Virus record (IMG/VR): IMGVR_UViG_2778261451_000005
Origin: a virus
Lineage: Duplodnaviria; Heunggongvirae; Uroviricota; Caudoviricetes
Reading direction: 5' to 3' (one strand)
Length of the DNA stretch: 35,227 bases
The notes below the pieces were generated by a model, which searched no databases, was not told the origin of the DNA, and saw nothing but the letters and a program-made list of their open reading frames with translations. Below are positions 1 to 33,835 of this stretch, piece by piece (within the stretch, counting starts at the first letter, position 1; every line of letters starts with the position of its first letter). Made by a program: the position numbers and the translations under genes.

Positions 1-318
1 ATGAAAAAGATAGCTGCTATATCATTAATTAGTATTTTTATTATGTCTGGTTGTGCTGTGCATAATGATGAGACAAGTATCGGTAAATTTGGTCTTGCAT
101 ATAAAAGTAATATTCAGCGTAAACTCGATAACCAATACTACACCGAAGCCGAAGCTTCTTTAGCCAGGGGCAGAATATCTGGTGCAGAAAATATAGTAAA
201 AAATGATGCAGCCCATTTCTGTGTTACTCAGGGCAAAAAAATGCAGATAGTTGACCTGAAGACAGAAGGTGCAGGATTACATGGCGTCGCTCGTCTGACA
301 TTCAAATGTGGAGAGTGA
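1..318 (+). CDS. Small lipoprotein (chromosomal flank, outside att)
   Basis: 105-aa ATG ORF with signal peptide and lipobox (IMSGC); lies on the bacterial side of attL; possibly the yegR-type ORF that neighbours this locus in E. coli (recalled, unverified). Confidence 0.6.
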   Translation: MKKIAAISLISIFIMSGCAVHNDETSIGKFGLAYKSNIQRKLDNQYYTEAEASLARGRISGAENIVKNDAAHFCVTQGKKMQIVDLKTEGAGLHGVARLTFKCGE

Positions 319-380
319 GAATATTTTTTGGTAAGCGTCAAACATGCGCGTTCTGGTTGTGCTTAGCCGGAACCTGTGCG

Positions 381-413
381 AGCACGATGCCGTTACGTGA
401 AAGGCATCGTGCT
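381..413. repeat. Perfect 11-bp stem hairpin (agcacgatgcc / ggcatcgtgct) with 11-nt loop
   Basis: Read directly from sequence; no U-tract follows, so function is unclear (terminator-like or protein binding site). Confidence 0.5.
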
Positions 414-430
414 ATGAAGGGAGATTCTAT

Positions 431-460
431 CGATGTGGTCAATGGAAGACGGTGACCAGG
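431..460. promoter_or_regulatory. Relic of a phage P-arm integrase arm-type site on the chromosomal side of attL
   Basis: cgatgtggtcaatg...gacggtgaccag closely matches the phage P arm at 33633..33660 (tcgatgtggtcaatgtgtggacgtgaccag) but lies outside the prophage. Confidence 0.45.
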
Positions 461-476
461 GATAGGGCTTATGCAT

Positions 477-503
477 AAAAAATAAGCCCGTGTAAGGGAG
501 ATT
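477..503. repeat. attL core (27 bp)
   Basis: Exact direct repeat of 33695..33721; matches the recalled P2 att core sequence. Confidence 0.9.
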
Positions 504-582: not shown

Positions 583-1596
583 TTACTCTACTGTGGACAC
601 TGTGTGGACACTCTCGGCTTCAGTACCACCTCTTAGCGGATTAAGAGAAATGGCGTCCTGAAGGTACTCTGGCGCAAAATGAGCGTAAACCATAGTTTGC
701 TCAATCCGCGTGTGACCTAGTATCCGTTGTAGCGTGATAATACTTCCTCCATTAATCATGAAATGAGTGGCAAAGCTGTGCCTTAGTGCATGTGTGGCTT
801 GCCCCGTTGGCAAATCCGGTTTTATTGCTTTCATTGTTCGTCTGAAGCGAGGGTAATCAGCATCAGGGAATAAAAAACCTCGTTTGTTATCCGCGATCAT
901 TTTGGCAACAGCCTCTGAGATCGGGACGGTGCGTGGTTTGTTTGTTTTCGTTTTAACAAACGTGACGCGGTTATGGATGATATTTTCTGCTTTCAAACGA
1001 GCTGCTTCTCCCCAACGTGCTCCTGTACTCAGGCAAAGAATCGCAATCTTTTTATTGTCGCCGTCAAGTGCTGCAAGCAGTAAGGCAATTTCTTCCTGTG
1101 TGAGATAGCCTGTTTCTGGTTTTTCCTCCTTAAGCCTCTTTGTCCCTCTGATAGGGTGCTCACCAAAGAATAACTCCGCTTCAATCAGGGCTGTAAACAT
1201 GCCGCTAATACATGTTAAATCACGATTGATACTCGAAGGTTTAATACCCTGACTTCTTCGGGTGGCGCAGTACTGGCTGATAAGGGATTTCGTGATTTGA
1301 AATGCGCATGGGTCATTCGTTATTTTTGTGAAGATTTCAATTTTTCCAAGATTAGATTTCCCATGCTCTTCGTGTTTACCCTTTAAATCCCACCAGATCT
1401 GTGTCAGTTCCGACAGACGTCGTTTGTCTGTTGGTTTTGATAGCCATTCTTTATTGTGGTGGTTGTACAACGTGTATTTTTCGAAAGCGACAGCTTCGCT
1501 TTTCTTATCAAACTTCCTACGGATGCGTTTTCCGTTACGTCCAGTAGGGCGGATGTCCACTTCATATCGACCATCATCGAGTTTTTTGATTGCCAT
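583..1596 (-). CDS. int: Tyrosine integrase, P2 Int
   Basis: 337 aa, ATG start with GGAGGG SD; sequence essentially identical to recalled P2 integrase; adjacent to attL. Confidence 0.95.
   Translation of the reverse strand: MAIKKLDDGRYEVDIRPTGRNGKRIRRKFDKKSEAVAFEKYTLYNHHNKEWLSKPTDKRRLSELTQIWWDLKGKHEEHGKSNLGKIEIFTKITNDPCAFQITKSLISQYCATRRSQGIKPSSINRDLTCISGMFTALIEAELFFGEHPIRGTKRLKEEKPETGYLTQEEIALLLAALDGDNKKIAILCLSTGARWGEAARLKAENIIHNRVTFVKTKTNKPRTVPISEAVAKMIADNKRGFLFPDADYPRFRRTMKAIKPDLPTGQATHALRHSFATHFMINGGSIITLQRILGHTRIEQTMVYAHFAPEYLQDAISLNPLRGGTEAESVHTVSTVE
592..611. promoter_or_regulatory. P' arm-type Int binding repeats (TGTGGACAC x2, 11-bp period)
   Basis: Two direct repeats of tgtggacac one helical turn apart; same TGTGGnCA motif as the P-arm repeats near attR. 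Confidence 0.55.
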
Positions 1597-23779: not shown

Positions 23780-24307
23780 ATGCAGCATTTAAAAAATATT
23801 ACTGCGGGTAATCCAAAAACTGTTGCCCAATATCAACTGACAAAAAATTTTGATGTTATCTGGTTATGGTCCGAAGAGGGAAAAAACTGGTATGAGGAAG
23901 TAAGTAATTTTCAGGAAGACACGATAAAGATTGTTTACGATGAGAATAATATAATTGTCGGCATCACCAGAGATGCTTCAACGCTCAACCCTGAAGGTTT
24001 TAGCGTTGTCGAGGTTCCTGATATTACCGCCAACCGACGTGCTGATGACTCAGGTAAATGGATGTTTAAGGATGGTGCCGTGATTAAGCGGATTTATACG
24101 GCAGACGAACAGCTGCAACTGGCGGAATTACAGAAGTCAGCTTTGCTTTCCGAAGCTGAAACTATCATTCAGCCACTGGAACGCTCTGTCAGACTGAATA
24201 TGGCAACAGATGAGGAGCGTAGCCGACTGGAAGCATGGGAACGCTACAGTGTTCTGGTCAGCCGTGTGGATCCTGCAAATCCTGAATGGCCGGAAATGCC
24301 GCAATAA
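23780..24307 (+). CDS. G: Tail fiber assembly chaperone G
   Basis: 175 aa; follows H as in P2. Confidence 0.88.
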
Positions 24308-24341
24308 GTTGTATGATCTCTGGAGTGAGCTAACGTATCTA

Positions 24342-33374: not shown

Positions 33375-33593
33375 ATGTTTCATTGTCCTTTATGCCAGCA
33401 TGCCGCACATGCGCGTACAAGCCGCTATATCACTGACACGACAAAAGAGCGTTATCACCAGTGCCAGAACGTGAATTGCAGCGCCACGTTCATCACTTAT
33501 GAGTCGGTACAGAGATACATCGTGAAGCCGGGAGAAGTCCACGCCGTAAGGCCGCACCCGTTGCCGTCAGGGCAGCAAATTATGTGGATGTAA
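33375..33593 (+). CDS. ogr: Late gene activator Ogr (zinc finger)
   Basis: 72 aa from ATG at 33375 with GAGGTG SD (MFHCPLCQHAAHARTSRYITDTTKERYHQCQNVNCSATF…); four-Cys zinc finger; ORF-track start 33294 rejected. Confidence 0.93.
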   Translation: MFHCPLCQHAAHARTSRYITDTTKERYHQCQNVNCSATFITYESVQRYIVKPGEVHAVRPHPLPSGQQIMWM

Positions 33594-33605
33594 TTACAAA
33601 CAGAA

Positions 33606-33630
33606 AGCCCCTCAGTCGAGGGGCTTTTTT
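33606..33630 (+). terminator. Rho-independent terminator after ogr
   Basis: gcccctc / gaggggc stem followed by TTTTTT. Confidence 0.8.
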
Positions 33631-33635
33631 GTCGA

Positions 33636-33655
33636 TGTGGTCAATGTGTGGACGT
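33636..33655. promoter_or_regulatory. P-arm integrase arm-type repeats (tgtggtcaa, tgtggacgt; 11-bp period)
   Basis: Same TGTGGnCA motif and spacing as the repeats at 592..611. Confidence 0.55.
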
Positions 33656-33694
33656 GACCAGAAATAAATCCTTTTATTTCATTGTATTACGCGT

Positions 33695-33721
33695 AAAAAA
33701 TAAGCCCGTGTAAGGGAGATT
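33695..33721. repeat. attR core (27 bp), identical to 477..503
   Basis: Exact direct repeat; embedded in the cyaR terminator. Confidence 0.9.
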
Positions 33722-33781
33722 ACACAGGCTAAGGAGGTGGTTCCTGGTACAGCTAGCATTTTATGGGTTATGTTTTTCAGC
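33695..33781 (-). ncRNA. cyaR: CyaR (RyeE) Hfq-dependent small RNA
   Basis: Minus strand reads GCTGAAAAACATAACCCATAAAATGCTAGCTGTACCAGGAACCACCTCCTTAGCCTGTGTAATCTCCCTTACACGGGCTTATTTTTT, matching the recalled E. coli CyaR sequence including the terminator. Confidence 0.85.
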
Positions 33782-33835
33782 GAAACGGATGATAACCTTA
33801 ATAAATGCAGCTGTATGTGATCGGTTTCTAAGAAT
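33782..33835 (-). promoter_or_regulatory. cyaR promoter with class II CRP-like site
   Basis: -10 TATCAT at 33789..33794 (minus strand); TGTGA-N6-TCTAA at 33816..33831, centred about 42 bp upstream of the inferred start; CyaR is known to be CRP-activated. Confidence 0.45.

Follow-up and report, generated by a model that had tools for sequence, protein, structure and literature searches.

The stretch of DNA analysed here, referred to as the window, comprises 35,227 nucleotides of a virus record assigned to the Caudoviricetes (IMG/VR record IMGVR_UViG_2778261451_000005). It runs from the first base of yegR (plus strand) to the start codon of yegQ/trhP (minus strand) and holds a P2-type prophage, which is inserted at the 3′ end of the gene for the small RNA CyaR. 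The first gene, yegR (1 to 318, plus strand), encodes a lipoprotein-like orphan protein of 105 residues and carries this name in E. coli records. It is followed by a non-coding segment (319 to 476), which forms the B arm of the attL site of the resident prophage. The attL copy of the 27-nt att core (AAAAAATAAGCCCGTGTAAGGGAGATT) sits at 477 to 503. Next to it lies the P′ arm of the prophage (504 to 625), in which the repeat TGTGGACA is found at both 592 to 599 and 603 to 610; the arm overlaps the 3′ end of the integrase gene int (583 to 1596, minus strand).

The opposite end of the prophage has the arrangement expected from the P2 annotation. The gene ogr (33375 to 33593, plus strand) is followed by its terminator hairpin (33604 to 33630, plus strand), by the intact Int arm-type site of the P arm (33632 to 33659, plus strand), with its repeats TGTGGTCA at 33636 to 33643 and TGTGGACG at 33647 to 33654, and by a 35-nt spacer that contains the IHF site (33660 to 33694). 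The attR copy of the core (33695 to 33721) adjoins this spacer and at the same time constitutes the 3′ half of the CyaR terminator; cyaR itself (the CyaR/RyeE small RNA) is on the minus strand at 33698 to 33783 and is recognised by Rfam model RF00112 with 100.7 bits (gathering score 47). The window contains these two copies of the core, which are identical to one another and to the attP core of P2. In its att region the resident prophage has 96% identity with P2 and 100% with Peduovirus P22H1.

The P-arm match in the left flank

The preliminary description of this locus drew attention to a short segment just outside the prophage, which it held to match the phage P arm closely, including one arm repeat, and to lie about 16 bp nearer to the core. 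Both observations are borne out. Positions 430 to 457 (TCGATGTGGTCAATGGAAGACGGTGACC) align with 33632 to 33659 (TCGATGTGGTCAATGTGTGGACGTGACC), the first 15 and the last 5 nt being identical. When the core is left out and the two arms are aligned locally, the score is 38. This value was never reached in 5000 shuffles, which scored 15.1 ± 2.3 and peaked at 31. The matched segment coincides with the feature “protein_bind Int, P arm” (24293 to 24320) in the GenBank record of P2, AF063097. On the basis of this annotation and of the shuffles we assign 430 to 457 (plus strand) as the relic of a P-arm Int arm-type site. The box lies upstream of the core at 477 to 503 just as 33632 to 33659 lies upstream of 33695 to 33721; it is thus on the side away from int and has the ogr-to-core orientation.

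Arm repeats of the P2 type follow the consensus tgTGGaCa (PMC3448106). The first repeat of the flank box (TGTGGTCA, 434 to 441) is intact and fits this consensus. The second (445 to 452) is degenerate and reads GGAAGACG where the phage has TGTGGACG; neither this repeat nor its counterpart in a longer allele described below (GGAAGGAG) matches the consensus at more than 5 of 8 positions. The flank box therefore does not contain two direct repeats of the consensus about 11 nt apart, and its degenerate second repeat is consistent with a decayed, non-working site. Between box and core there are 19 nt in the flank (458 to 476) and 35 nt in the phage arm (33660 to 33694). A spacer of about 35 nt, with room for the IHF site, is thus not found in the flank, and the 19 nt are probably the part of the IHF-site region that survived a deletion within it.

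Two further features lie upstream of the box. Reading of the sequence revealed a perfect 10-bp inverted repeat (GCACGATGCC ... GGCATCGTGC) with an 11-nt loop at 382 to 412, the place that the ogr terminator occupies in P2. No T-run follows this hairpin. Inspection of the hairpin at 382 to 412 gave no compensatory changes; the polymorphic positions at the top of the stem, 390 and 403, are not partners. The second feature, AAGGGAGATT (417 to 426), lies 3 nt upstream of the box and repeats the final 10 nt of the core for a third time. The chance of any core 10-mer recurring is roughly 0.015. An additional integration event may have left this 10-mer as a third remnant of the core. Other E. coli lineages have variants of it (AAGGAGGATT, AAGGGGAATT), and we note that these resemble the right end of the decayed left core (see below), in the same or in other lineages.

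The flank in E. coli and in outgroups

The flank (1 to 503, at least 80% coverage) was located in 5398 of 5426 complete E. coli genomes (about 99.5%), empty sites included; in an O111 strain, for example, it is joined directly to cyaR. An artificial empty-site junction was covered in 4572 genomes, a figure that includes K-12-type remnants joined as two pieces. The window's own junction of flank, core and P′ arm was found in 812 genomes, so that about 15% carry a P2-type prophage at this position. The preliminary description had proposed that the prophage integrated into a core retained from an earlier, largely deleted P2-like element, and it would have given up this idea if the same sequence were present in strains with no history of P2-like elements at the site. 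The flank is indeed present in such strains, yet the idea stands. The earlier element would not be a strain-level feature but one that is fixed in E. coli, empty sites included; as the flank is near-universal in the species, a refutation by P2-free strains would wrongly reject a correct idea. Presence in phage-free strains is thus no valid test against a prophage origin, and the valid comparison is with outgroups.

In K-12 the old flank and core continue to position 494 and are then followed by a D′ fragment, ogrK, a near-intact P arm, a second core and cyaR. The second core is complete, and the locus in K-12 W3110 (L003, 3300 to 4140) thus contains two generations of P2 fossils. The preliminary description had suggested the K-12 remnant for comparison; it was right that a P2 remnant lies at the same core there, but this remnant is a second, younger fossil, which sits inside the old core.

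A few genomes depart from the common pattern. In NZ_CP010228.1 (strain S3) the match to the flank query is limited to its first 78 nt and lies under a P2 family major capsid protein gene, which suggests a rearrangement or deletion that joined the flank to the prophage interior. Frameshifts in yegR and its neighbours, with scattered single-base indels, are seen in CP178302.1, which represents E. coli in the set of one genome per species, and in locus L140. These two look like uncorrected long-read assemblies, and their protein identities of 65 to 88% would then not be biological.

Outgroup loci were collected by a scan for the conserved part of cyaR in one genome per species. At least 120 loci were obtained, 115 of them with a CyaR-type terminator; with the exception of a few chance pattern matches, the loci listed are enterobacterial. 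In 51 of the 115 listed enterobacterial loci yegS starts at a distance of at most 180 nt from the cyaR pattern. This short arrangement is observed in Klebsiella, Enterobacter, Kosakonia, Citrobacter, Phytobacter, Atlantibacter and Escherichia sp. E1V33, and in many of these loci a common yegS promoter segment runs directly into the terminator. The corresponding distance in E. coli is 907 to 1097 nt, and among the cyaR loci listed yegR is found in E. coli only. The segment at 319 to 476 is likewise absent from the outgroups; in empty sites it joins the cyaR core directly.

Pairwise comparison of E. coli with E1V33 reveals a single insertion of 798 bp, which on its right side extends to the first base of the core. 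At its left edge the E. coli sequence TAAAAAGTCAGTTCAAGTATGGAGGATT aligns onward into the outgroup core CAAAAAATAAGCCTGCGTAAGGGAGATT. An unbiased scan of the whole E. coli spacer placed the best ungapped match to the core, 18 of 27 positions, 88 nt from the yegS start; the true core of E1V33 begins 86 nt from the yegS start. The binomial tail for at least 18 of 27 matches at a fixed site is 6e-6 to 9e-5. An intact core thus delimits the insertion on the right, and a decayed one, in the orthologous position, delimits it on the left; such a pair of boundaries is characteristic of an integrated element. Only E1V33 sets a limit to the age of the insertion; the comparison does not extend to E. fergusonii, the named cryptic clades or E. 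albertii, for which the single locus retrieved shows no more than the right end of a resident prophage.

These results support the proposal that the resident prophage sits in a core left by an earlier, largely deleted P2-like element: before the present integration the core at 477 to 503 would have been the attR core of this fossil. The preliminary description had confined the relic to 319 to 503. The P-arm relic does lie there, but the extent is larger, and the fossil is better described as an island of about 0.8 to 1.1 kb that includes yegR.

The core of E1V33 combines a terminator half-site GCCTGCGT, as in Citrobacter and Enterobacter, with an E. coli-type body half ACACAGGC. In place of GCCTGCGT, E. 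coli has GCCCGTGT, which agrees fully with the P2 core; the ancient phage may have been the source of the 3′ half of the E. coli CyaR terminator.

Between yegS and the cyaR terminator, lineage-specific insertions measuring 0.5 to 2.8 kb occur in many other Enterobacteriaceae. They are present in Enterobacter spp. (loci L014, L065, L066, L106, L109, L111 and L117), Kluyvera (L020, L028 and L094), Leclercia (L061 and L089) and Scandinavium (L108), as well as in loci L086 and L025. A decayed core is found at the ancestral position in the Scandinavium locus (18/27) and in Enterobacter L014 (16/27). In L086 an ogr-terminator-like hairpin is followed by GTCGAT, and L025 has an intact-looking P arm just 2.8 kb from yegS. 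With small insertions or remnants at the same site in Enterobacter, Kluyvera, Leclercia, Scandinavium and Citrobacter sp. Awk 4, the site at the end of cyaR appears to be a recurrent graveyard of integrated elements.

The long allele and the island interior

A scan of metagenome contigs with the 3′ end of yegR returned 120 loci, of which 101 had usable flanks; these represent 35 haplotypes. One haplotype (L183) is divergent, its yegS and yegQ being 92.9% and 96.4% identical to reference E. coli. This long allele is also carried by 23 complete genomes, among them APEC E19025, in which a modern P2-type prophage again occupies the right-hand core. In the long allele the left core and the next 120 nt are identical to the resident core and P′ arm at 107 of 146 positions (73%), and the P′ alignment scores 111 against 6.4 ± 3.3 in shuffles. 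Both P′ repeats are kept, as TGTGGATT and CGTGGCAG where P2 has TGTGGACA twice. A P′ arm, with Cox region and two arm repeats, thus stands beside the left core. BLAST by itself paired this fossil P′ arm with attL sequence from another strain, in which a P2-like prophage is resident (74.8% identity, E = 9e-11). On the other side of the island, P arm and core of the long allele are identical to those of the resident prophage at 76 of 95 positions. The spacer is full-length (39 nt, CGGTATGAATCCTTCCTTCTGTTTCATTGAATTACGCAT); it has the motif AATCC..TTTCATTG.ATTACGC, and the IHF-region motif AATCCTTCCTTCTGTTTCATTGAATTACGCAT is recognisable.

The spacer between P box and core measures 19 nt in the common allele, 31 nt in PCN033, 35 nt in P2 and 39 nt in the long allele; in PCN033, an intermediate, the loss from the spacer is only 8 nt. 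The common and the long allele have the same degenerate second P repeat (GGAAG for TGTGG) and are therefore orthologous. From the series of alleles, the common allele would be derived from a longer ancestor, having lost about 70 nt of P′ and a net of about 20 nt of the P spacer. That the box stands 16 nt closer to the core than in the phage would thus be explained by a deletion that later removed part of the IHF-binding spacer. The common allele retains some similarity to P′ in an alignment anchored at the core edge (score 8 against −7.4 ± 3.7, reached in 0 of 3000 shuffles); the unanchored similarity is not significant (458 of 3000 shuffles).

Searches by tblastn with Int and by tblastx against the whole window matched the arms only, and the island contains no P2 coding remnant (int, ogr, D and others). 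In phage records, yegR and the island interior are found only as host flank. Only two phage records match the flank at 319 to 475, both with host flank, and we rejected the idea that it is phage-carried. One of these records, AY639599.1 (Phage TP), looks like a K-12-type remnant with yegQ; the other, ON470606.1 (vB_EcoM-720R8), contains host DNA including yegS, yegR and the flank. A strong full-length match of YegR to phrog_21109 was discounted, yegR being in phage records only as host flank; we suspect that this family was built from host-flank contamination. Prophage-boundary tools and phage databases thus absorb the flank, with the two “phage” records and the one PHROG family containing yegR as results.

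A Pfam scan of YegR gave nothing above threshold; its precomputed family is PF27694, which is named “YegR”. No P2 setting was found around distant homologues of YegR, which occupy unrelated loci, one of them flanked by insertion sequences. The closest relatives outside E. coli (81 to 83% identity) are in Cedecea and a Klebsiella sp., at an unrelated chromosomal locus, and there an ORF of 108 to 110 residues follows the yegR homologue. Homology of this cassette to E. coli begins 10 nt upstream of yegR and ends about 120 nt past its stop codon. An AT-rich segment of 174 bp after the stop codon of yegR is kept by some E. coli (L004, 2826 to 2999; L005; L136; L264, 2331 to 2506) and is missing from the window at 323/324. 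The segment is homologous to the 5′ part of the 108- to 110-residue ORF; yegR would thus once have been part of a two-gene cassette. On this evidence yegR was acquired horizontally. Its arrival as phage cargo and its later entry into the remnant appear about equally likely. Because the island is without P2 coding remnants and phage records hold yegR only as host flank, we infer rather than observe that the element was once a complete P2-like phage, and yegR perhaps came separately.

An origin in two steps is accordingly a credible possibility, although not the one that we favour. The arms would be P2 fossils, with yegR and the AT-rich interior inserted later, or two elements would have arrived in succession and left a composite. 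The relatives of YegR at an unrelated locus, with an ORF of which E. coli keeps a fragment, are in line with such a history, as is the restriction of yegR in phage records to host flank. The partial third core copy at 417 to 426 misfits a simple one-event model and, by its place upstream of the P box, is a hint of an additional att junction; given its probability of recurring by chance, this 10-mer is weak evidence when taken alone. On the other hand, neither insertion-sequence ends nor target duplications are present around yegR, and a single decayed full-length core (18/27) is detectable in the spacer.

We also considered whether the P-arm relic still acts. Across 36 haplotypes (the 35 metagenomic ones and the window's own) 45 of 151 flank sites vary. 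Positions 424 to 446, which cover the intact repeat, are invariant in 35 of the 36; by permutation p = 0.02 when the divergent haplotype is left out. With all 36 haplotypes the longest invariant run has p = 0.62, so this result hinges on one haplotype. The invariant run and the intact first repeat would fit a box that has been retained, either because it still binds P2 Int and so aids attB preference or alters excision, or because it has a host function. We regard such retention as improbable. The divergent allele is changed within the repeat itself (TATGGTCA), position 454 has four alleles and the distance to the core varies (19, 31 and 39 nt); the common allele has lost both its second repeat and its IHF site. 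The reported binding of P2 Int to arm sites in the form of paired direct repeats also counts against a retained relic. The relic is most likely inert. It is comparably doubtful that the fossil P arm is still partly alive, a case that would be clearest in the long allele with its IHF spacer of P2 length. A P2 prophage newly integrated there has an attL of the form P*-core-P′, which is almost an attP. Were this so, residual binding of Int and IHF could alter the rules of recombination at the site. The fossil could then contribute to the preferred attB of P2 or to Cox-independent or aberrant excision, and the stability of P2 lysogens would differ among E. coli lineages according to their fossil allele.

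Origin of the island and known systems

The segment at 319 to 476 is very probably what an ancient P2-like prophage has left at its attR side. This prophage would have entered the 3′ end of cyaR in an E. coli ancestor, and deletions would then have cut it down to the present island. From left to right, the locus would consist of the yegS promoter, attL* with its decayed core, the P′-arm relic, AT-rich DNA, yegR (in some strains with a fragment of the second ORF beside it), the P-arm relic, the intact core and the body of cyaR. The island would therefore extend to the left of the window, as far as the decayed attL core and P′ arm by the yegS promoter. The right core would have stayed intact because the CyaR terminator uses it as its 3′ half; the left core and both arms would have decayed because they are functionless. 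Since the right core is a perfect 27-nt match to the attP core of P2, present-day P2-like phages integrate there. Judging from established P2 biology, they would do so by Int-mediated core-by-core exchange, and the fossil P arm would thereby become the “bacterial” arm of the new attL, as in the window.

The reverse direction, in which the phage P arm was copied from host DNA, for instance by aberrant excision, is very improbable. The similarity alone would allow it, but the sequence is missing from outgroup chromosomes and the host copy is the degenerate one; moreover, P2-like prophages of Citrobacter, Enterobacter, Scandinavium and Huaxiibacter have the same box beside their own cores. A chance resemblance, conceivable for a match as short as 28 nt, or a recent strain-specific remnant such as that of K-12, is scarcely credible in view of the shuffles, of the correct side, orientation and partner arm, and of a flank found in nearly every E. 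coli genome.

If the segment is indeed the end of an ancient prophage, one side of the main P2 attB of E. coli, taken as plain bacterial DNA, would be the end of an older P2-like prophage. The live right-hand core is cyaR terminator and P2 attB at once. The K-12 “y-gene” yegR would lie inside the fossil, a position that identifies it as a horizontal acquisition rather than core E. coli DNA. The locus provides a dated, multi-allele case of prophage decay, in which the CyaR terminator needed by the host is preserved and stays open to re-infection. It would hold three generations of elements, namely the ancient fossil, the K-12 remnant and the live prophages of today.

The P2 attachment site, its 27-nt core and the P2 remnant of K-12 are already known; Barreiro and Haggard-Ljungquist reportedly described this cryptic remnant in 1992. 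In the searchable literature, whose coverage does not extend to the primary papers of 1992 and 2009, so that a prior mention is possible, we found neither the older species-wide fossil nor the position of yegR within it described. The fossil belongs to a familiar class, prophage remnants at reusable att sites in the 3′ ends of small RNA genes; its novelty is modest and no new mechanism is involved.

The closest relative is the K-12 remnant itself (yegZ/D′, ogrK, P arm and core by cyaR). Both derive from a P2-type element at the same core and both underwent internal deletion from the attL side with the attR end kept. They differ in age: the K-12 remnant is young, with a P arm near-identical to P2 and an intact ogr, is confined to few lineages and lies inside the core of the older fossil, whereas the latter has no phage gene left, has arms that are at best 73 to 80% identical to P2 and is found throughout the species. 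Compared with the attP of P2 (AF063097), which has the order P-arm Int sites, IHF site, core, Cox sites and P′-arm Int sites, the fossil shows the same order, orientation and repeat consensus. The island stands between its two arms, which is the situation of an integrated prophage; of its two cores one has decayed, and its second P repeat has gone. Deletions in the common allele have also removed the IHF spacer and both P′ repeats.

Elements are known to integrate and decay time after time where sRNA, tRNA and tmRNA genes have their 3′ ends, for example at the Salmonella sdsR locus (PMC3333887). As at loci of the sdsR type, the 3′ end of a small RNA gene serves here as attB, and a replacement 3′ end supplied by the phage allows the gene to survive and the site to be used again. 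What distinguishes the cyaR locus from these is that the leftover of an earlier round is fixed species-wide and forms the textbook “bacterial” arm of the attachment site.
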